Positions 5,538 to 64,000 of a stretch of 64,000 nt of DNA are shown here, piece by piece (positions within the stretch are counted from its first letter, which is position 1; each line of letters starts with the position of its first letter). This DNA is from a virus (taxonomy: Duplodnaviria > Caudoviricetes): IMG/VR virus record IMGVR_UViG_3300027891_000004, positions 1 to 64,000 of that record; one strand, 5' to 3'. The notes beneath the pieces are model-generated. The model saw nothing but the letters and a program-made list of their open reading frames with translations, was not told the origin of the DNA and ran no database searches. Both the position numbers and the translations under genes were made by a program.

Positions 5538-5927
5538 TCAATGGTTAGACCTACCATGTTTTTCTCGGTGCGGATTTGCCGCATGGTATACGTGTCGTTT
5601 TTCCGGGTATTCAAAATCCCATGTACATAGGTCAACGTCTAGCCTTTCCCATCGAAAATGATCGCCGGGATGATCGTCGTTGCAACGGCAATTAAGCGGA
5701 TCGCAACACATACACGGAAACAATGTAACATCTCGTATTTCATTGTCACTCGCGTCTAGAAACCATGCGAACGTATCTCGTGATACGTAATAATCACGGT
5801 TAAAAGTACGCAATTGAAAGCCTTCCGGCGTTATACCGTATATTTTTACGGCCGCCCGCCGTTTTTTCTTCCAACCGCGTATTTTTGGCATACGGCTTTT
5901 TCTTTGTCTTTTTACTTTTTTGCCCAT
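5538..5927 (-). CDS. DUF2442-family putative antitoxin (pair 2)
   Basis: ITPEGFQL....RDYYVS..TFAWF.DAS..EI.DV...HFRWERLDVDL....EYPEK; follows a DUF4160 gene. Confidence 0.8.
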   Translation of the reverse strand: MGKKVKRQRKSRMPKIRGWKKKRRAAVKIYGITPEGFQLRTFNRDYYVSRDTFAWFLDASDNEIRDVTLFPCMCCDPLNCRCNDDHPGDHFRWERLDVDLCTWDFEYPEKRHVYHAANPHREKHGRSNH

Positions 5928-5932
5928 CTACT

Positions 5933-6382
5933 TTATCTCAAATCGTAATCTTTAATTGTGGGGTCTTGCGGGTAACTTATCTTCGCCCATTCAAGCCATT
6001 TGTTGACAAATAATACGCGGTTATCCGATACGACTTCTAAAATTTTTCCCAACTCCTTTTTAGGAACAGACGGCGAAAAATTGGCAAGCGTTACCTGATC
6101 CTTATTTGGTCCTGCCGCTGTCCAAATTTTCACCTCGCCTTCAGGCAACGTAATATGCGTATGCGGAGGTTCAAGCACGCCACCATGTTGTATTTCGTTT
6201 GAACCAATTCCGAAATTCTTACCGCGATATTTAGGAGTCCCCTTGAAAATAGGCGACATATTAAACGCCGCCATCTCCGATACGCCACTGGTCCGTTCGA
6301 GCAGCGTTTGGAAATCGACCCCGGCCCCTTCGGTGCTCCCGGCCGTCCCCGCCATCTCATTGAAGCTATTGTACGTTTGCAT
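5933..6382 (-). CDS. DUF4160-family toxin-like protein with 41-aa N-terminal leader (pair 2)
   Basis: MSP...SNE...EPPHTHI....GEVKIW...EL.KI.EVV..N...F..KW; leader MQTYNSFNEM...SEMAAFN. Confidence 0.75.
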   Translation of the reverse strand: MQTYNSFNEMAGTAGSTEGAGVDFQTLLERTSGVSEMAAFNMSPIFKGTPKYRGKNFGIGSNEIQHGGVLEPPHTHITLPEGEVKIWTAAGPNKDQVTLANFSPSVPKKELGKILEVVSDNRVLFVNKWLEWAKISYPQDPTIKDYDLR

Positions 6383-6386
6383 TATA

Positions 6387-6869
6387 TTATTTATTGATTT
6401 CGTTCCAGTATTCAAAATCTAAAAGCCGGTCGCTTAACCACGGCTCCTTTCCGTTTGCGATTTGTGTATCGTTATACTTTTTTAGACGGTCCAGTTCTTT
6501 TGTAGTAAAGCCTAAAAATGTATTAGGGGCGGGGTTTTCTAGCCATTCAATACCAATGTAAATTTCTAATAAAGGCCAAAGTACCGTATCGTACATCACG
6601 CGAACATGTTTTATTTCTTCTGGCGTTGTTCCTAAAAAATGAGGATACTGATCGAATGACACAAAAAAATCTTTTTTACAATCTTCCCAGTTTTTTTTAA
6701 TAAAAAATTCTTTAGAAAAAATAGTTATCCAAAATCCATTTTGTAAAATGGAAAAAACTTCGGCACTCTGTTCAGTTGTCAGGCTGGGCTGAATCGGGTC
6801 GTTGATAAATTCGACCTCGCTTTTGTTTTCGGTTGCTTTCTTGACTGCTTTTGGGCACATGTTTGTCAT
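6387..6869 (-). CDS. DUF2442-family putative antitoxin (pair 1)
   Basis: AEV..I..NGFWI...FFVSFDQYPHF...T.EEI.HV...VLWP.L.I.IG.E.LENP. Confidence 0.75.
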   Translation of the reverse strand: MTNMCPKAVKKATENKSEVEFINDPIQPSLTTEQSAEVFSILQNGFWITIFSKEFFIKKNWEDCKKDFFVSFDQYPHFLGTTPEEIKHVRVMYDTVLWPLLEIYIGIEWLENPAPNTFLGFTTKELDRLKKYNDTQIANGKEPWLSDRLLDFEYWNEINK

Positions 6870-7281
6870 CGTATTGTCCCTTTTGTTGGGCGAAAGAAGG
6901 TATAGTTGATTTGTATTGCTGAATAAATGTTTCTTGATTGGGGACAATGTGTTTTATAGCCTGGGTTAATTCGTCGTTTCGCATATTTCCATTATCTTTA
7001 ACGGAGATGTTTGGGGTGAGCCAAAATTCTGCGTTTTTATTGCCCGGTGCGTTTACATGGACATGCGGTCGAGGTCCCTCTGTTGGCCAAATAAAAAATT
7101 CGTACCCCTCTACTTTTTTTACCGGAAATAAAGGGGGCGACATATTGAACATCGCCATCTCCGAAAGCAAAGGAGCGGAAGTGCCGCCGGTCCGTTCGAG
7201 CAACGTTTGAAAATCGACCCCGGCTCCTTCGGAGCTTCCGGTCGTCCCCAACATCTCATTGAAGCTATTGTACGTTTGCAT
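6772..7281 (-). CDS. DUF4160-family toxin-like protein with 46-aa N-terminal leader (pair 1)
   Basis: MSP...EGYEFFIW..E.PRPHVHV....NAEFWL.P.I.V..N......EL..A.K.I; leader almost identical to that at 6382. Confidence 0.8.
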   Translation of the reverse strand: MQTYNSFNEMLGTTGSSEGAGVDFQTLLERTGGTSAPLLSEMAMFNMSPPLFPVKKVEGYEFFIWPTEGPRPHVHVNAPGNKNAEFWLTPNISVKDNGNMRNDELTQAIKHIVPNQETFIQQYKSTIPSFAQQKGQYDDKHVPKSSQESNRKQKRGRIYQRPDSAQPDN

Positions 7282-7348
7282 TGTACTAAAATCAAAACGG
7301 CAAAAAGAATACAAACAAAACGGCATTGTAGCATTCCGTACCGAATTG

Positions 7349-9394
7349 TCAATCATTTCGGCGTTTGCAGAACAAGTCGATCATACTCAAAATGTACTTT
7401 TCCGTATCTGTGCCGACGCCTTTCCAACCCTTATGGCCCCGTTTCGAGAGGTAGTTTTTCAACTGTCCAACTGTTTTTATGTGGTGTCCGTACTTTATGT
7501 AGTATGCCCATTTACTTTCGTTTTTGTTTAACAACTTTTCGCCAACGGCGCACCGAAACCATGTCATTTTGCATCGCTTTTGTATCGACTTGCTTTTTTC
7601 GTCTTTTTCTATGAGCCATAAGTGGAAGTCGTCAACGGACATTGTTTCGGGATCGGGCCGTTGTTTTTTTGGTAATTTTGCTTTTGGTGCCAGATCAGGG
7701 GCTATGGATGCTATCAATTCGGGCGTAATTGGTTTCGGTTTGAAATTAGGCGTAGGCTCATTTGGAACCGTAGCGGGTGGCGTCGTTTCCTGGCCCGCCT
7801 TTGCTTCGCATACGGGAGTTACGGGCGTTTCCGGTTCTTTTGGGTAAAAGAACTTTTCCTTTTGTCCGGTCTTTTCATCACGGAGACTGACCGTGATACC
7901 TCGGCAAACGTACGCCATGTATTGCAGAGAATACTTCAGTGCGTCGTAGCCCATCACGCCGTCTGGGAATATTTCTGGATCGGGCGTGATAGTTATTTGA
8001 GTACCGCATTTTTCGGTCTTTTTCAAAACAGACACGGGGCCTACGGGAATTCCGCGTTTGCATATCAGCCGCATAACCTGCCCGTTATTGTGCACATCGA
8101 CGATGCACCGTTTGGCGATCAAATTGAACCGTCGAACGAGGTACAAATCGTTAGGCACCAAATGTTGGCTTTCTTTGAACGTGCCTTTGAAATAATACGG
8201 GTATTTTTCGATAGGCAAACAATGCCTATCGTTTGCAAACGTGACGGTGCCGTCTTTTTTGATCGCTACGATTATTACCGATACGTTTTTCTTTAGTTCG
8301 ATAAAATAGGTGCGGACAATATCGTGGATACGTTTTTCTGATGGCGTCATTTCTGTTTCTTTTGTTAGGGGTTCGGTTATTGTTTGTTCCGGTTCGTCCG
8401 GTTCGTTCGATTCTGACGTAGGCGAGATTGCGTGCAGGACGAGTTTGCACATTTGTTGGGTCCAATCGTAGGCGGGAGCCAACCCGTGAATTCGTTTTAT
8501 CCTTTTCGCTTCATTCACGACGCTGACGAGAACATCATCGTGTGAGGCTTCCCTGTCGCGTCTGGCCAACTCATAAAAAGTTTCCCACCGTTCTAGGCAA
8601 TTTTGTATTTCGTTTTGAAACGGCGTACAATCGTCGTGTGCTACTGTGGGCTTGATGGACGTATCTGGCGTTGTTTCCGCTCGTGTTACGAGGCCTCGCT
8701 CCGTTTCCTGTCGTTCCTCTGTTTCTTCCGTGGTTATTTCTTCTTTTTCGATTTGTTTCATGGCTTCTTTTACCAATGGCTGATTTTTGTTGCATTCTTT
8801 CCGATCTGTGCGCCTTGAGCATTCGATATTTTTTGCAATAATCTCATCGGTCCGGTCTTTGATATTTTCCAATTCTTTTTCGGAAGCGTTTTTTGCACGA
8901 ACACCAAGATCGGCCTCTGCTTTTGCGAGCGCGTTATCGACATGTTCGATAGATAGTGTGCCGTCAATAATCTGTCGTTGGAGGTCAAGAGAAGCATATT
9001 TTCTGATCCTTACTCCACGTTCTATATGCCGCCAACTTACGCCTGATATTTTGGACGCCGACTTGCTCGTTACTTTGTATCCGCCTTTTTTTCGTAACAG
9101 ATAGTAATCGACAGCGAGCAACGTCAACTGCGAAGGCGTCATGTGATGCCTATACCTGTTATTTTGTATTGCGAATCCCAGCGGATCGTCGCCCAGATAA
9201 TCATTGTACGCGGGGTAGGCACCGACTCGTGCGGCCGCGAGGTATCTGTCGTACCCGTCCAATATCCGGCCCTCGTACATAATAATCACGGGGGGACACC
9301 CGGCTTTGATCTCGTTGACGCGAGCTTCAATGTCGGTATCATCCGGCATAGGCAGCATCGCGGCGTATTCGTGTAGTTCTGGTTTTGTTGACAT
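7349..9394 (-). CDS. ParB-like N-terminal domain protein fused to a degenerate GyrB ATPase fragment
   Basis: N-terminal LHEYA..LP.P...I.MYEGRILDG..RY.AA...DPL.F....N..RHHMT.SQ plus HTH; ~7841-8350 reads ...DGTVT..ND...LP.E...YKRG-like CKRG.P...GT.IT..PDPEIF...L..L.Y...GI.V.L.DE.T...FFYP. Confidence 0.75.
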   Translation of the reverse strand: MSTKPELHEYAAMLPMPDDTDIEARVNEIKAGCPPVIIMYEGRILDGYDRYLAAARVGAYPAYNDYLGDDPLGFAIQNNRYRHHMTPSQLTLLAVDYYLLRKKGGYKVTSKSASKISGVSWRHIERGVRIRKYASLDLQRQIIDGTLSIEHVDNALAKAEADLGVRAKNASEKELENIKDRTDEIIAKNIECSRRTDRKECNKNQPLVKEAMKQIEKEEITTEETEERQETERGLVTRAETTPDTSIKPTVAHDDCTPFQNEIQNCLERWETFYELARRDREASHDDVLVSVVNEAKRIKRIHGLAPAYDWTQQMCKLVLHAISPTSESNEPDEPEQTITEPLTKETEMTPSEKRIHDIVRTYFIELKKNVSVIIVAIKKDGTVTFANDRHCLPIEKYPYYFKGTFKESQHLVPNDLYLVRRFNLIAKRCIVDVHNNGQVMRLICKRGIPVGPVSVLKKTEKCGTQITITPDPEIFPDGVMGYDALKYSLQYMAYVCRGITVSLRDEKTGQKEKFFYPKEPETPVTPVCEAKAGQETTPPATVPNEPTPNFKPKPITPELIASIAPDLAPKAKLPKKQRPDPETMSVDDFHLWLIEKDEKSKSIQKRCKMTWFRCAVGEKLLNKNESKWAYYIKYGHHIKTVGQLKNYLSKRGHKGWKGVGTDTEKYILSMIDLFCKRRND

Positions 9395-25899: not shown

Positions 25900-26451
25900 A
25901 TGCAGAAATTAGCCGACATTAGTGTTTTCGAGGGGCTTCAACGCGGCGCGCACGCACAAATGAACATTCCAAGCGAAATGTCTGTTTTTAACGATTACAG
26001 CGAAGCGGAAAAACAAGAGCGCACCGCAAGAATAGAGCAAGAGATAGAAGATATAAAACGGGAAACAAATAAATTATACTATGATGCTCGAAATGCGAGG
26101 CAACAAATGGAAGCCGAAAAGAAAGCGGCATTCTCCGAATTGGGCGCGGTTGCGCAACGGGCTGGATGGGACGAGAACCAAAAGCAGGATTATTGGCGAA
26201 AATACGATGAAATACTGTTACAAGAACACGAGGAAAAATACTTTTGGGCTAACAAAGAAATGAAAGATAGAGCAGATGCGCTTAGAGGCCGCGTAAAAGA
26301 GATACGAGGAAACGACCCTGATGGCCGTTTTGCGATTCCTTGCTTTGCTATTGAGGACAAACTAGACAAATTCGAGATGCAAATAAAATCGACAATGAGC
26401 AAGAAACCAGTAGAAAGAAAGACGCTTAGTAATATGTCGGCGTTTCAATAG
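25900..26451 (+). CDS. Leader-tagged protein, coiled-coil payload
   Basis: MQKLADISVFEGLQRGAHAQMNIPSEMSVFN; the C-terminus also ends SNMSAFQ. Confidence 0.85.
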   Translation: MQKLADISVFEGLQRGAHAQMNIPSEMSVFNDYSEAEKQERTARIEQEIEDIKRETNKLYYDARNARQQMEAEKKAAFSELGAVAQRAGWDENQKQDYWRKYDEILLQEHEEKYFWANKEMKDRADALRGRVKEIRGNDPDGRFAIPCFAIEDKLDKFEMQIKSTMSKKPVERKTLSNMSAFQ

Positions 26452-26758
26452 CCCCTTTTGCAATGCCCGTGCCGCTAAGCAGCCCGTCAAAATAGGCCAC
26501 GTAGTGCATCGAAAAGAATAAAAAATTTAAGTCACTTTTGTGACTTGCCTGATTATGTTCCCAATTGTTGTATCGAGATATTGTATCTTTCCAAAAAACG
26601 GTGCGTTCGTTATGGCTTTTCAAATGACCAACGTCGCGTTGTTCGTATTTCAAGCCTTCTTGCAATTTTCGGCGCCATATCTCCCTTTGCTCTGCGCGGG
26701 TATGGCAATTGTAGACCGCCTTCGTTTTCAAAGCGGTTTCAATAAAATCGGTAGTCAT
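26426..26758 (-). CDS. Hypothetical protein
   Basis: ATG 26758 with AGGAAGG RBS. Confidence 0.6.
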   Translation of the reverse strand: MTTDFIETALKTKAVYNCHTRAEQREIWRRKLQEGLKYEQRDVGHLKSHNERTVFWKDTISRYNNWEHNQASHKSDLNFLFFSMHYVAYFDGLLSGTGIAKGAIETPTYY

Positions 26759-26779
26759 TTGACAGCCTTCCTGTAAAAT

Positions 26780-26795
26780 CCCGCCACGTGGCGGG
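26780..26795. repeat. Dispersed palindrome copy 6
   Basis: CCCGCCACGTGGCGGG, 13 nt past the rpsF stop, followed by ATTTT on the minus strand. Confidence 0.95.
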
Positions 26796-26808
26796 ATCGT
26801 GTGCGGCA

Positions 26809-27237
26809 TCAATCGGATTCCGTATCTCTGTTTTTATATTTCTCTTCCAATTCTTTCATAAGCGGGTCGTTATCCAGGTCGATTTTCTCATCGTCCTCTT
26901 GCGGAGTCGGCTTGTGTTTTTTCGCATGATCGACAAGCGTATCGACCAATTTTGGATCTATTACGATAAACAAGTACCGGAGCACGCACGCCTCGTTTTG
27001 GAACAGGTCCGATACCGCCTTGATCCGTTCGGGATCGCACCGAAAATAGGAAAGCCAGTAAATAGCTCGCAAATGGCCGGGAACTCCGTAATTCAAAGTA
27101 CGTTCGTTCCATAGCGAGCTGTGAAGCATCTCGCCGCCCTCCCGCCCGACCATTTCGGCAAGACGTCCCGAAACGGCGTCCGGATTCTCGTCGTACATCG
27201 ATGCGTCGAGCACAAATAGCCCTTCATAAACGTTCAT
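26809..27237 (-). CDS. rpsF: 30S ribosomal protein bS6, planctomycete type, phage-encoded
   Basis: NVYEGLF.LD...Y..NP..VSG...EM....GGEML.S.LW.ER.L.Y...G.....YWL.YF.........LRYLF...DP.LVD.LV.HA plus acidic tail. Confidence 0.85.
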   Translation of the reverse strand: MNVYEGLFVLDASMYDENPDAVSGRLAEMVGREGGEMLHSSLWNERTLNYGVPGHLRAIYWLSYFRCDPERIKAVSDLFQNEACVLRYLFIVIDPKLVDTLVDHAKKHKPTPQEDDEKIDLDNDPLMKELEEKYKNRDTESD

Positions 27238-59921: not shown

Positions 59922-61142
59922 TTAGGATTCAAGAACAATAGGCAGTTTATCCCACGTGAACACGTTAGAGCCTATAAATAAGGCATCGTCAACTACGGCG
60001 TTGGTCAAGTAGGTGTCTACAACCAACTTTCGTAACGACACGAAAATATTTCGATACAACCAAAAATAGGTACCGTTCCCCGTTTTAGCTTTCGGATCGT
60101 AATCTGGATTGTACCGAAATGTTCTTACGATATAATCATCGCCCATCATTTGATCTTCGGCGAGCGGCCCCGCCACGGGGAGACCATCAAGGGGGCCTCC
60201 CTCATGCAAGCCTTGATCCGGGCGGCTGTCGAAAGTCAAAACGGGGAACGGAGCTGGCGTGTACAGCCAATACGGGGCACCTTTGTACATAATCCGATCC
60301 ACCCCGTGCGGGCGTTGGAAATTGTTCCAACCAATCGGGTTCCAGTTTAGTTCAAACTGTAGATTCCATTGCGACGACACGGTAGGATCGTCGGTCAAAT
60401 TGATCTGCCGGTCCATAGAGACGGGGTTAAAAAGTAACTGACCGGGCTGCGCAACAAAAGAAGGAACGTACACAGGCTCCCCATCACTATCGTACACAGG
60501 CTTCCCTGTTAGCGGATCAATCTTTATCTGGGCCGATATAATATCTGACCATACATTCGAGTTGCATTTCCCGGCCAGTAGGAAGAACCAACGGGGGATA
60601 CGGCGGACCCCGCTAAGGGTCCGCGATATTTTGAGTGAAAACGACATAGCTGCGGGTGCCTCCTTATCCAACACGGGCGACCCGTCCGAATGCCAGTAAT
60701 AGCCCCAAGAAGGCAGCGTTCGCATCCCGATACTCGGCGTAACGGTTTGTTGTACCGCGCCGTTAAATCTGGCCACGCCTTCGTAGCTTGCGTCAATCTG
60801 GCACATGGTATGCGGCTGCCATACAAGATTGCTCGATTGATTCCAACCGACGGGCGGTGTCTGTCCTTCGGCTCCGAGCGGTTTCGACGACAGCGAAGAA
60901 CATATAGGGGGGTAATAAGTACTAAAAAAGAATGCGTCCTCGTCCACGCTATTAAACATAGGTTGGTATATGGACCGGGACGCTCTTTGCATGACCATGG
61001 CGCGGTGTTTCCATTCGCAAATATACGATATACTTGCGGTAAACTTCTCTTTCGCCCACTGCTCGGACCGGCTCCCGTTTACCTCCCAAACGAAACCGAC
61101 AGGTAGCCACGAAGTATAGTTTGGACGTACAGTATCAGCCAT
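59922..61142 (-). CDS. Putative distal tail protein
   Basis: First large gene downstream of the tape measure; GKCN...W...PGQLLF...F.L..NP.GWN. Confidence 0.65.
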   Translation of the reverse strand: MADTVRPNYTSWLPVGFVWEVNGSRSEQWAKEKFTASISYICEWKHRAMVMQRASRSIYQPMFNSVDEDAFFFSTYYPPICSSLSSKPLGAEGQTPPVGWNQSSNLVWQPHTMCQIDASYEGVARFNGAVQQTVTPSIGMRTLPSWGYYWHSDGSPVLDKEAPAAMSFSLKISRTLSGVRRIPRWFFLLAGKCNSNVWSDIISAQIKIDPLTGKPVYDSDGEPVYVPSFVAQPGQLLFNPVSMDRQINLTDDPTVSSQWNLQFELNWNPIGWNNFQRPHGVDRIMYKGAPYWLYTPAPFPVLTFDSRPDQGLHEGGPLDGLPVAGPLAEDQMMGDDYIVRTFRYNPDYDPKAKTGNGTYFWLYRNIFVSLRKLVVDTYLTNAVVDDALFIGSNVFTWDKLPIVLES

Positions 61143-61290
61143 AGCAGGGGCAGGGGAATATGTTTACGGGAATGTTTATGCCGAGGCAACCGACATATTA
61201 TATCAAGAACTGTGAAAGAAACAACCGAACCGCCAAAAATTTAGTAGCATCCGCCAAATAAAGTTTGCGAAATTCCGTTCTGAAAAACTT

Positions 61291-61383
61291 TTATAGAGCC
61301 GAAAGGTTTGGCCAGCGGTTCCTTGATAGGAGGCTTTTACGTCACATGGAACTCACGGCGAAGGTTTTTATGTTAATCTAACC
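61291..61383. promoter_or_regulatory. Three-block motif shared with 25571-25654
   Basis: TTATAGAGCCG (61291), GCGGTTC (61315), CACGGCGA (61354). Confidence 0.5.
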
Positions 61384-61409
61384 ATTTAGGTTCTGACCTA
61401 TTGCAACGT

Positions 61410-61931
61410 TCAATGGCAACTGCCTTCAGTTATAGGTCCTATCCATTTCATTATGTTTTTACGAGGGAATTCCCAAGCAACTTCTTCCGGAGGCAGTGAT
61501 GATTGGAATACGGGGTATCGTTGTCTGCCGTATTTTTCTACCAATTCGTGCGCTTCTTGTTTGTCTTTGGCCCTGACGCAAAATGCACCCGAACGAAAAT
61601 AAGTAATCTCTACCTCATAGCATTTTTTTGCATCAGACTTTCCCGCATCGCGAATCATCGCGGGCAGTACACGTTTAGATTCTCTTACCGCATTAATGCC
61701 GTGTACATTCGGTGGGCTGCCCACGGCCCGAAACTCCCACCCGATAAGAGGCGATTTTTTATTTGAATTTTTTTCGGGGAATGTAAAGCAAGCTCTTGAA
61801 GAGTATTTCCTACATTGATTTTCTACCAATGTGATTGCTTCTGTTGTGCCTGTCGCGTAAACAAAAAATTTCCCTGTATACGTAAGCATAACGGGCACTT
61901 TATAGTTATTCTTTTTCATTGCCTTTTCCAT
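61410..61931 (-). CDS. Internally duplicated protein, candidate non-canonical antitoxin
   Basis: Two copies of Y.V.(V/I).....G.F.V.A....EA..LVE......WEF; lies 6 nt behind the HigB-like gene. Confidence 0.65.
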   Translation of the reverse strand: MEKAMKKNNYKVPVMLTYTGKFFVYATGTTEAITLVENQCRKYSSRACFTFPEKNSNKKSPLIGWEFRAVGSPPNVHGINAVRESKRVLPAMIRDAGKSDAKKCYEVEITYFRSGAFCVRAKDKQEAHELVEKYGRQRYPVFQSSLPPEEVAWEFPRKNIMKWIGPITEGSCH

Positions 61932-61937
61932 GTGTTG

Positions 61938-62450
61938 TTAGTGATAATCCGTAATTTCCTGTATTTCAATTTCTGTAACTTTCGACCAATCTAAATTACC
62001 GTTTGCATCTACGGGAATTGGATCATGCTTTGGCACAAAGATTAAACGCCACCCACCATGCAAAGCGCCAGCAAGTTGCCCTGCCCTATCGTCTTTTAAG
62101 CTGTGAAAATTACCTTTATTGTCACGAACTCCCCGCAATTCTTTACGCCCCTTCAATTCTTCAAGTGTTATAGCTCTTTCAAGTCTCTTTAATTGCTTTT
62201 CAAGCACAATATGATTTTTTGGATTTCCACCATCGCCTCCAAATTCGATATTTCCGGGCGTACATTCAGCTTCTACCTGAGGATTAGCGTAGGAAATGCC
62301 AACCATATTATCAACGGCGTCATCATTCCAAACCTTGCCGTCTGCCGACTGACATTCTTTTATGGTTTGGAACGACGCATTGCCGCCGATGCAACGACAA
62401 TCGCCAGAACCAGGCAGTTCGCTAAAACTGTTTACAACATTCATTTTCAT
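61938..62450 (-). CDS. HigB-like (RelE superfamily) toxin with N-terminal leader
   Basis: L..L..A.TLEEL...GNFHSLK.DR.GQ.A..L..GWRLIF.P.HDP.P....G.LDW..VT.I.I.EI.DYH; leader NSFSELPG...FQTIKE; AAGGAG RBS. Confidence 0.85.
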   Translation of the reverse strand: MKMNVVNSFSELPGSGDCRCIGGNASFQTIKECQSADGKVWNDDAVDNMVGISYANPQVEAECTPGNIEFGGDGGNPKNHIVLEKQLKRLERAITLEELKGRKELRGVRDNKGNFHSLKDDRAGQLAGALHGGWRLIFVPKHDPIPVDANGNLDWSKVTEIEIQEITDYH

Positions 62451-62512
62451 TCTCCTTTTTATAGTATGCCGATTTCTTAAAATAAATCAACAAGCATGGA
62501 TTCAAAAAGGCA

Positions 62513-62534
62513 AAAGCCCGCCACGTGGCGGGCT
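62513..62534 (-). terminator. Dispersed palindrome copy 8, positioned as terminator after the tape measure gene
   Basis: AGCCCGCCACGTGGCGGGCT, followed by T4 on the minus strand; 10 nt past stop 62543. Confidence 0.8.
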
Positions 62535-62542
62535 CGCCCATT

Positions 62543-64000
62543 TCAATAGTTCCTGTTTGCCCCGCCCGCCAGTCCGGCCGGGCGGTTGTAATTGTTGGTC
62601 ACGTACTCATTGCGACCCTGCGGCATCATCGCTCGCTGTTGCGTGGCCTGGATCAATTGCGGCATAGAGGTTGTCAGGAACGTCATCAAATTCGCGTGTT
62701 GCAATTGCATATTACGGTCCATTGTGATCGTTGCATCGGCGGCGGGGTCCGTAACATGCCCGAACGCGGCGGCCTGTATCCGTTCCCACGTACCCTCCAT
62801 CGAATCCTTACCGCCCACGTCCTCACTAATCAGACCCCGGTACGTACCGCTTGCGGCCATACGGTCGGAGATCGCCTCGGCTATTTGTTTACTATTGTCC
62901 ATTTCCGCCCTTTGGTTGGCGTATTTCTCTTGGATTTGCGCCATTTCCGATTCGGTTACGCCGCGTTCTTTGGCCCGTTCGGTTTCGCGTTTCTCCTGCA
63001 CCGTTAAATCACGCGATTGCCGTTCGTATTGGAGTTCCCGGTTGCGTTTTTGAATCGCCTTCATCCAATCGGCACCGGTTTGCGCACCGGCCATATCGAC
63101 GGCGAATTGTGTATTGATATTCCCCTCGCGCCGTTGGGATTCGCCGCGTGTTTTTATCATATCGGCTTGGAAACTATCGGCTCTTTTCCTACGTTCGGCA
63201 TCAAGTTTTACCCTTTCTTCTTCAAGTTTTTGGGCGCGTTCCTGTTCTTTTTTTGACGCCGTATTTCTGGCTTCCCGTCTGTCGTCGGCTTCCATTTTTT
63301 GTCTTTTCTGTTTCGCGTCCAGATCGTCCTGCGCCATTTGATGTTGGCCTTTTTTGGTAGCTTGGTCCATAGCCAATTTACCCAATTGTGCTGTCCCTTC
63401 CTTGTAGCTTGCAGCCAACGTTTCCAGACTTGCCTTTTGATCGCCGTTATTGATGCCTAGTTGCTTCAATATATCTGCCAATATGTTGTTGCCCTGCATA
63501 GCTTGCGCAAGCTGCGCATCGCCCGCCGCGGCGGCGGCCTTCATAGCATCTGATATATCTGCGTTGGCTTCTTTGAGACCCTCTTTCATTGCTTCTTTCG
63601 CTTTGTCGTCTGCTACCTGTTCATCTGTCAGGCCGGGCGTTGTTTGAGAAGGTGGACCGCCACTTGTTACTGCGCCTGTCCCTGAAATCTCGCCCGGTTT
63701 CGCTTTCTCAATCTGCTCCTTAAAATAGTCGCGTATTTCAATAGCCGTTTTTTCATCGCCATCTTTTGAAAGCGCATTATTTATCATACCTTGTACTTTT
63801 TTGCGTTCCTCAGGACTTAAATCTGCCGTCTTAAGATAGGAAGCCATTCCTGTTGAAAGTTCTCTTGTCGCGGATGCCGCACTATCTTTCTCAGCAAACA
63901 AATTCCAACCGCTTCTTTCTTTATTGCTCTTATTTGCTTCTACAACGGTAGAACTATCCGCATACAATTTACGGAGTTCCTGCAAGTTTTTCAGTTGCTC
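62543..64000 (-). CDS. Tape measure-like protein, C-terminal part (runs off the window)
   Basis: Frame open to the window edge; A/Q/E/K-rich helical sequence; C-terminal WERIQAAA; upstream of tail genes. Confidence 0.7.
   Translation of the reverse strand, partial: EQLKNLQELRKLYADSSTVVEANKSNKERSGWNLFAEKDSAASATRELSTGMASYLKTADLSPEERKKVQGMINNALSKDGDEKTAIEIRDYFKEQIEKAKPGEISGTGAVTSGGPPSQTTPGLTDEQVADDKAKEAMKEGLKEANADISDAMKAAAAAGDAQLAQAMQGNNILADILKQLGINNGDQKASLETLAASYKEGTAQLGKLAMDQATKKGQHQMAQDDLDAKQKRQKMEADDRREARNTASKKEQERAQKLEEERVKLDAERRKRADSFQADMIKTRGESQRREGNINTQFAVDMAGAQTGADWMKAIQKRNRELQYERQSRDLTVQEKRETERAKERGVTESEMAQIQEKYANQRAEMDNSKQIAEAISDRMAASGTYRGLISEDVGGKDSMEGTWERIQAAAFGHVTDPAADATITMDRNMQLQHANLMTFLTTSMPQLIQATQQRAMMPQGRNEYVTNNYNRPAGLAGGANRNY

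Follow-up and report, generated by a model that had tools for sequence, protein, structure and literature searches.

The uncultured large phage of IMG/VR virus record IMGVR_UViG_3300027891_000004 has a 167,820-bp genome (∼94% complete), which includes genes for a portal, a large terminase and a structural protein of capsid type; the window analysed here is its initial 64 kb. We studied a two-gene cassette of this window, which consists of two open reading frames in the same orientation, 61938-62450 (170 aa) and 61410-61931 (173 aa), both on the minus strand and with 6 nt between them. The first gene, here called the toxin gene, encodes a predicted HigB/RelE-fold domain behind an N-terminal leader resembling that of other genes of the phage. 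The second, here called the partner gene, encodes a protein without a helix-turn-helix (HTH) domain that is a candidate for a new type of antitoxin. The features of the locus are the following.

62543-64000, minus strand: C-terminal part of the 2083-aa tape-measure-like gene (which continues to 68794), upstream flank of the insertion site
62514-62535, minus strand: terminator-like hairpin with a T-run, a copy of a genome-wide 16-bp palindrome, between the tape-measure stop codon and the cassette
62307-62450, minus strand: toxin leader and linker, residues 1-48, predicted to be disordered
61941-62306, minus strand: predicted HigB/RelE-fold domain of the toxin, residues 49-170, ending in Asp-Tyr-His (stop codon 61938-61940)
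61410-61931, minus strand: partner gene, 173 aa (169 aa from the second ATG), no leader, no HTH, isoelectric point (pI) 9.5
61722-61919, minus strand: partner repeat unit 1, about residues 5-70
61431-61625, minus strand: partner repeat unit 2, about residues 103-167
61143-61409, minus strand: 267 nt of non-coding DNA separating the cassette from the next tail gene
59922-61142, minus strand: 406-aa tail-row protein, downstream flank, found directly after the tape-measure gene in insert-free relatives

An AAGGAG box lies 7 nt ahead of the second ATG of the toxin gene, and the public gene call begins at the same ATG. Because of this ribosome-binding site, translation probably starts at the second ATG and would give a protein that begins MNVVNSFSEL. 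A scan of 60900-62800 against Rfam found nothing at gathering score, and a scan of the coding strand for sigma-70 promoters found no site upstream of the cassette. The palindrome CCCGCCACGTGGCGGG stands at 62517-62532, just before the cassette, as had been noted from the letters of the DNA. It is perfect over 16 bp and is present in 17 copies in the 168-kb genome, mostly intergenic (in the window at 1534, 1610, 5219, 11411, 25747, 26780, 37409 and 62517, with nine more elsewhere in the genome). Copies are often extended to GATC...GATC, and some are flanked by A and T runs in the manner of a terminator. Others are without such runs, and for this reason the palindrome may also serve as a protein-binding site. 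The copy at 62517 reads as a terminator-like hairpin with a T-run after the tape-measure gene.

Insertion of the cassette in the tail gene row

The 2083-aa protein upstream of the cassette (62543-68794) has a weak tape-measure match (phrog_339, E 7e-4), and further genes for very large proteins (406 to 2416 aa) come after it in a row on the same strand. We compared this junction with that in related phages. Both in a 246-kb genome and in locus L019, homologues of the 406-aa protein directly follow the giant tape-measure-like protein. In L018, the C-terminus of the tape-measure protein is 41% identical to that in the window, and the same junction (L018:6202-9712) contains genes for HATPase_c, a STAS-like DUF4325 protein, a PIN-like protein, a SocA/Panacea antitoxin domain and an unknown 285-aa protein. 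Moreover, the GC content of the cassette is 42.6%, compared to ∼51% in both flanks. From synteny and GC content, the cassette is inserted between the tape-measure gene and the next tail gene. This agrees with the sequence-only reading, which had placed the pair as an insertion in the tail operon: two relatives are free of the insert and a third carries another one. The narrower claim, that the pair lies between the tape measure and distal tail genes, stood in part; the position of the 406-aa protein is kept, while the tape-measure match is weak and the term 'distal tail' is by position only. As L018 holds a different five-gene insert at this place, phages of this group appear to have a variable site for accessory cargo where the tape-measure gene meets the next tail gene. 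A tblastn search of 50,697 phage records gave no match for either the toxin or the 406-aa tail protein, and a search of viral contigs found no relative of the 406-aa protein.

Two further observations concern other genes of the genome (regions 139423-141447 and 148237-151377). A clamp-loader-like gene holds an intein with a LAGLIDADG homing endonuclease (Pfam), and the family matches of the large terminase (1046 aa) fall in three stretches that lie apart, suggesting that inserted elements are present there too.

The toxin domain and its leader

PHROG 3066, annotated as 'toxin of TA system' (TA, toxin-antitoxin), matches residues 77-170 of the toxin at E 1.2e-4. Ten homologues were found in 5.8 billion clusters, two of which carry a JGI name that is the old KEGG label for HigB, and a profile of this homologue family run against the PDB matched GraT (6f8s_B, E 0.007) and also Proteus vulgaris HigB (4mct_B). 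In the HMMER alignments, the F-H-x-L...D-R-x-G-Q...R-L-I-F block of the toxin lines up with the L-H-P-L-K-G-D-R block of HigB and with GraT, and H114 (in the window protein within F-H-S-L) is aligned to the His of the HigB L-H-P-L block. In the AlphaFold (AF2) model of the toxin, residues 1-44 are disordered and the core has a predicted local distance difference test (pLDDT) score of 84-91. When this model was searched with Foldseek, the best match was P. vulgaris HigB on the 70S ribosome (probability 1.0, template modelling (TM) score by target 0.70), followed by YoeB, RelE and YafQ. We regard it as almost certain that the domain has the HigB/RelE fold, and the HigB-like domain behind a long N-terminal extension that had been read from the sequence was thus confirmed.

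Within the ten homologues H114, R120, Q123 and R133 are invariant and the terminal Asp-Tyr-His is nearly so; homologues that carry the kept His and Asp-Tyr-His are only 39-69% identical. We take H114 and the C-terminal Asp-Tyr-His to correspond to His54 and Asp90-Tyr91-His92 of HigB, which are active-site positions. The titles of PDB entries among the Foldseek matches name the HigB variants Y91A and deltaH92. Compared to HigB, the toxin has insertions around residues 97-106 and 138-152. Given the fold match and the residues kept at active-site positions, the domain is apparently a divergent but intact HigB-family nuclease.

The N-terminal part of the toxin resembles the leader of other genes of the phage. 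A pattern NSF-x-E...F-Q-T is shared by the N-termini of the toxin and of the genes at 5933-6415 (minus strand) and 6772-7356 (minus strand); in the toxin the second anchor reads NASFQ and an Asn stands at the junction with the fold. The closest leader relative is that of 138271-138855, to which residues 1-35 of the toxin are 51% identical (E 2.8e-7 within the genome), and the toxin start MNVVNSFSEL is almost that of the type-B leader of 80776-81483, MRVVNSFNEL. A profile of the leaders of homologous toxins had as its best non-self hits three leader genes of the genome (E 0.004-0.018). With a type-A-dominated profile, at least 26 six-frame segments of the genome were detected. Together with the toxin and 138271-138855, the leader is thus borne by at least 28 otherwise unrelated genes of the phage. 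The clearest case among the homologous toxins is that of L016, whose N-terminus matched a type-A profile built without any toxin at E 1.1e-14. The leader variants of the toxin differ by locus: type A in L016, a short type B in L004 and an unrecognisable form in a second copy of the cassette in the same genome. Since the toxin wears type-A, type-B and intermediate leaders in different phages, which is the shuffling behaviour of the family, it very probably belongs to the set of leader-family cargos. The toxin had been proposed as a cargo of this leader system from the sequence, and the proposal was upheld mainly by the L016 homologue; as for the parallel between NSFSELPG and NSFNEMAG on which it was based, the pattern is there, while the window leader alone is marginal in profiles (E 0.004-0.024).

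The leader ends where the native HigB fold begins, and all leader-bearing toxin homologues have an Asn within two residues of the first strand of this fold. As the junction Asn echoes the Phe-Asn/Gln end of the leader family, we infer a putative processing site at this Asn. A double-glycine leader of the bacteriocin type was considered and dropped, as the spacing of the conserved positions does not fit.

Other members of the leader family were also seen. Four paralogous convergent gene pairs (window 25900-26812; genome 87522-88387, 97881-98823 and 126904-127783) each consist of a gene for a type-A leader protein, whose body is helical and charged, and a facing gene on the opposite strand for a conserved small protein. 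The main cluster of leader-tagged genes also contains a gene without a leader, at genome 73256-74365 (L006:11256-12365, minus strand), that encodes an RtcB RNA ligase of full length (Pfam E 5e-66). RtcB joins RNA ends of the type left by RelE/HigB-type and anticodon nucleases.

The partner protein and its pairing with the toxin

The partner has no HTH domain in the models of Pfam, NCBIfam, PHROGs or PADLOC, and PADLOC gave no defence-system match for either the toxin or the partner. Its Pfam matches were weak and below threshold (DUF4288, E 0.005; DpnD/PcfM, E 0.14). The predicted model, which is confident (pLDDT 83.9), is an alpha/beta sandwich in which a beta-hairpin, a helix and short strands occur twice, and a hidden Markov model (HMM) of each half finds the other half (i-E 1e-5 to 6e-12). 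The repeated unit has ∼65 residues, an alpha/beta build, an invariant Cys and a Trp-x-Phe motif. Both the absence of an HTH and the two-repeat build had been read from the sequence, and they hold against four HMM libraries and in the reciprocal matches, respectively. The label DpnD/PcfM-like, given at the same time, fits the window partner less well, as it scores 12.6 bits against the DpnD/PcfM model, below the cut-off of 25; a four-unit relative that adjoins a homologous toxin (P0018) passes the cut-off with 27.5 bits. DpnD/PcfM-like proteins (Pfam PF14207) are small proteins of unknown function from the DpnII cassette and plasmid pCF10. They share with the phage unit a small beta-beta-alpha-type build, while the phage unit is longer, has the invariant Cys and the Trp-x-Phe motif, is duplicated in tandem and is tied to a toxin gene.

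An exhaustive profile search with the unit found 78 cluster representatives, most of them with a single unit (67-80 aa) and the invariant Cys and Trp. Three of 36 stand-alone unit proteins weakly match the DpnD/PcfM model, and stand-alone relatives are located in the early regions of mobile elements, where one has a PcfK gene nearby. Judged by sequence comparison, the partner is a previously uncharacterised repeat type with a distant likeness to DpnD/PcfM. Two-unit partners are basic (pI 9.0-9.9; window 9.5). Structure searches with Foldseek against the PDB, with VIA-align (wide) and in the ESM Atlas found generic ferredoxin-like matches (Z ≤ 5.1, TM < 0.6), with ribosomal protein S6 and ACT or PII domains among the nearest shapes. 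Such generic matches point to no specific fold family for the partner, and they do not imply that the fold is new. A literature search found nothing on DpnD/PcfM function or on a virion-packaged HigB.

We then asked how regularly the unit accompanies the toxin, counting the loci with readable DNA. In all ten of them the toxin adjoins a gene of one, two or four units: the window, a paralogue at 107.5-108.5 kb of the same genome, three pairs in L004, and one locus each in L005, L013, L020, L016 and L012. Co-occurrence of the partner family with HigB had been named beforehand as a check of the pairing. The paralogue is a second whole cassette (genome 107501-108489, L002) beside a primase-like gene, with a gene overlap of 25 nt; its toxin domain is 72% and its partner 50% identical to the window copy. 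L004, a 35.8-kb contig, has its three toxin-partner pairs in tandem, and L005 has a partial array. The partner in L013 is 48% identical, and that in L016 has a single unit and a 4-nt overlap with the toxin. In L012 (8932-11280) a four-unit partner lies immediately upstream of the toxin, and downstream there is an ankyrin-repeat protein (245 aa, Ank_2 E 8.5e-59), which could be a second binder or a replacement keeper. The junctions of the toxin and partner genes are tight (a 6-nt gap in the window, overlaps of 4 to 25 nt in the paralogue, L013 and L016), and the gene order is toxin-first, as in higBA. The nearest leaderless bacterial relative of the toxin (P0010) is followed by an HTH_3 and Peptidase_M78 gene in the classical layout, in keeping with the earlier remark that an HTH protein is the normal neighbour of this HigB class.

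A leader-tagged gene of a toxin family next to a leaderless small neighbour is a general layout in this genome. Genes for DUF4160 proteins with leaders are followed by a DUF2442-like gene at three places (5933-6415 then 5538-5927; 6772-7356 then 6387-6947; 138271-138855 then 137727-138386). The unit itself also forms the end of a DUF2442-like partner of a leader-tagged DUF4160 gene (137.7-138.9 kb), and fusions of the unit to DUF2442-like partners recur elsewhere (P0028, P0032). In a third cargo type, a leaderless Lar-like zinc-ribbon gene lies directly downstream, three times. These zinc-ribbon cassettes (genome 72534-73199, 79419-80211 and 82108-82941) have cargos with three different leader types.

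The toxin and the partner are thus likely to form a cognate pair. The strict co-occurrence makes the partner a candidate for a new antitoxin type; whether it neutralises the toxin by binding is, on these sequences, an evenly balanced question. A complex prediction for the toxin domain with the partner had a score of 0.00, which was obtained without controls and counts neither for nor against binding.

Possible roles of the cassette

We propose that this is a mobile cassette of cargo plus keeper, in which a leader-attached HigB-type nuclease is accompanied by a cognate, non-DNA-binding partner that replaces HigA; in our judgement this proposal has about as much in its favour as against it. The first gene would provide a HigB-family endoribonuclease domain behind a floppy leader of ∼48 residues, and the second its cognate partner, which would most likely neutralise the nuclease in the producing cell in place of an HTH HigA. 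The leader would mark the toxin as a protein to be loaded into the prohead. A head maturation protease of the DUF2213 type, encoded at genome 85184-86878 and adjoining the main cluster of leader genes, would trim the leader, possibly after the junction Asn or Gln, and the freed nuclease would enter the next host along with the DNA, whereas the partner would not leave the producing cell. Both the nuclease activity and the leader cleavage are putative for this toxin. Loading of the toxin into virions by the leader is a tentative suggestion, somewhat short of an even balance. More doubtful is the full scenario, in which the phage would load a translation-targeting ribonuclease of the HigB type into its capsid through a cleavable leader, inject it to disable translation in the next host, and shield its own late protein synthesis with a new class of non-DNA-binding immunity protein made of DpnD/PcfM-like units.

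Parts of this arrangement are known from other systems. The toxins HigB of P. vulgaris (4mct, 4w4g, 4ypb) and GraT of Pseudomonas putida (6f8s) share with the phage toxin the RelE-type fold, the conserved His in an F/L-H-x-L-x-x-D-R block, the Asp-Tyr-His C-terminus and the tight toxin-first coupling. The phage toxin differs from them in its leader, its two insertions, its acidic charge and the lack of a PF05015 hit, and the phage-encoded pair differs from HigBA in having tandem DpnD/PcfM-like units instead of an HTH HigA and in its place within a tail gene row. In phage T4, the internal proteins IPI-III and Alt have a capsid-targeting sequence that is removed by the gp21 prohead protease (PMC3012670, PMC9026906). 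Like that sequence, the leader is a short N-terminal tag that unrelated cargo genes of a large phage have in common while the cargos themselves change fast, and it is disordered and stops where the cargo fold starts. In contrast to T4, the tag is longer (28-48 aa) and has two Phe anchors, and its loading and cutting are putative; the putative cut is after Asn or Gln, whereas T4 cuts after Glu; and the T4 cargos are without a dedicated keeper gene. The head protease also differs, being DUF2213-type in this phage, and a genome-wide search for the T4-type protease Peptidase_S77 and gp23-type capsid families (PF03420, PF07068) found no match. Polymorphic toxins of the MuF type in temperate phages have a small downstream gene that is thought to give immunity (Jamet et al. 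2017, PMC5576092). The phage cassette resembles them in joining a toxin domain to a (here putative) head-associated targeting part and in its small downstream gene. Its toxin is of the HigB type with a short leader, with no Pfam domain (MuF, SPP1 gp7-like) in the 48-residue N-terminal part, and its two cassettes do not adjoin the portal, one being in the tail row and the other among replication genes.

A number of results weigh against the cargo-plus-keeper proposal. With respect to the leader, a type-B profile built without the toxin found it with a marginal E of 0.024 among 1669 six-frame segments, and the type-A-dominated profile missed the window toxin (E 7.6). The second cassette sits among replication genes, which would equally fit an ordinary toxin-antitoxin role, and the N-terminal 37 residues of its toxin are recognised by no leader profile. 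With respect to the partner, most members of the unit family are stand-alone proteins of ∼70 aa, and the sole stand-alone locus that was examined (L017) has no recognised toxin gene alongside. Over six pairs, which are non-independent, the identities of toxins and partners show no significant correlation (r 0.41, p 0.13). With respect to the toxin, there was no Pfam hit at E ≤ 1 and no NCBIfam hit, PF05015 included, and for this reason we describe it as a divergent member of the HigB family. Ribosome-binding RelE/HigB toxins are normally basic and their antitoxins acidic. Here every homologue has a toxin domain with a neutral to acidic pI (4.5-7.0; window 5.9) and the two-unit partner is basic, which reverses the classical HigBA pattern, so that ribosome-dependent cleavage by the toxin is not assured.

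Several of these results fit an alternative that we consider unlikely, namely that the cassette is a type II toxin-antitoxin moron of the ordinary kind carried by a phage, unusual in its antitoxin and acting only inside the infected or lysogenic cell in addiction, superinfection exclusion or anti-defence, with the N-terminal extension as a regulatory tail or an appendage specific to the family. The operon, with the toxin first and tight coupling, resembles higBA, an autonomous moron is suggested by the low GC content and by the terminator-like hairpin upstream, and the Panacea-antitoxin and PIN-like genes of L018 mark the junction as a spot for accessory cargo. The second cassette, with its unrecognisable leader, would be at home among replication genes under this alternative, and the genome has several ParB-like genes that would suit a plasmid-prophage lifestyle. 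Against it, the toxin cargo bears three variants of a leader common to more than 25 unrelated genes, one of them a clear type A (E 1e-14), and the disordered leader stops at the start of the native fold. The partner, moreover, lacks the DNA-binding domain for autoregulation that is typical of type II modules.

The charges bear most on a second, quite improbable alternative: that the HigB-like domain is no longer a toxin but an acidic, repurposed RelE fold (a ribosome or RNA decoy, or a binding module) whose basic partner is a nucleic-acid-binding co-worker. The two insertions relative to HigB, the lack of a Pfam match and the generic ferredoxin-like shapes of the partner, ribosomal protein S6 and ACT or PII among them, would also fit. 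Against this, homologues that have diverged to 39-69% identity keep the His and the terminal Asp-Tyr-His with little or no change, and the solved HigB variants Y91A and deltaH92 target the corresponding positions. Strict pairing with a small downstream gene is in addition the signature of a dangerous protein, and other toxin-family cargos of the genome are paired alike. The least probable alternative, in which the partner is not an inhibitor but a loading chaperone or adaptor that escorts the leader-tagged toxin to the prohead, draws on the unit appended to the partner of the DUF4160 cargo whose leader is closest to that of the toxin, but most leader-tagged genes of the genome have no unit-bearing neighbour, and unit partners accompany toxins with quite different leaders (short type B in L004, type A in L016, unrecognisable in the second copy), which means that the partner tracks the cargo and not the leader.

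If the partner neutralises the toxin, as the cargo-plus-keeper proposal supposes, it would represent a new antitoxin or immunity fold for RelE/HigB-family nucleases and offer a first clue to the function of the DpnD/PcfM-like unit, which many phages and plasmids encode as a small orphan protein. If the leader brings the toxin into virions, the toxin of a classical toxin-antitoxin system would have been turned into an injected phage effector with a keeper that stays behind, which would link toxin-antitoxin biology, polymorphic toxins and the internal proteins of phages. Should the full scenario of injection and shielding be true, the widespread DpnD/PcfM-like orphan domain would gain its first function, that of a toxin neutraliser, and toxin-antitoxin modules would be seen to be recycled as weapons delivered by the virion.

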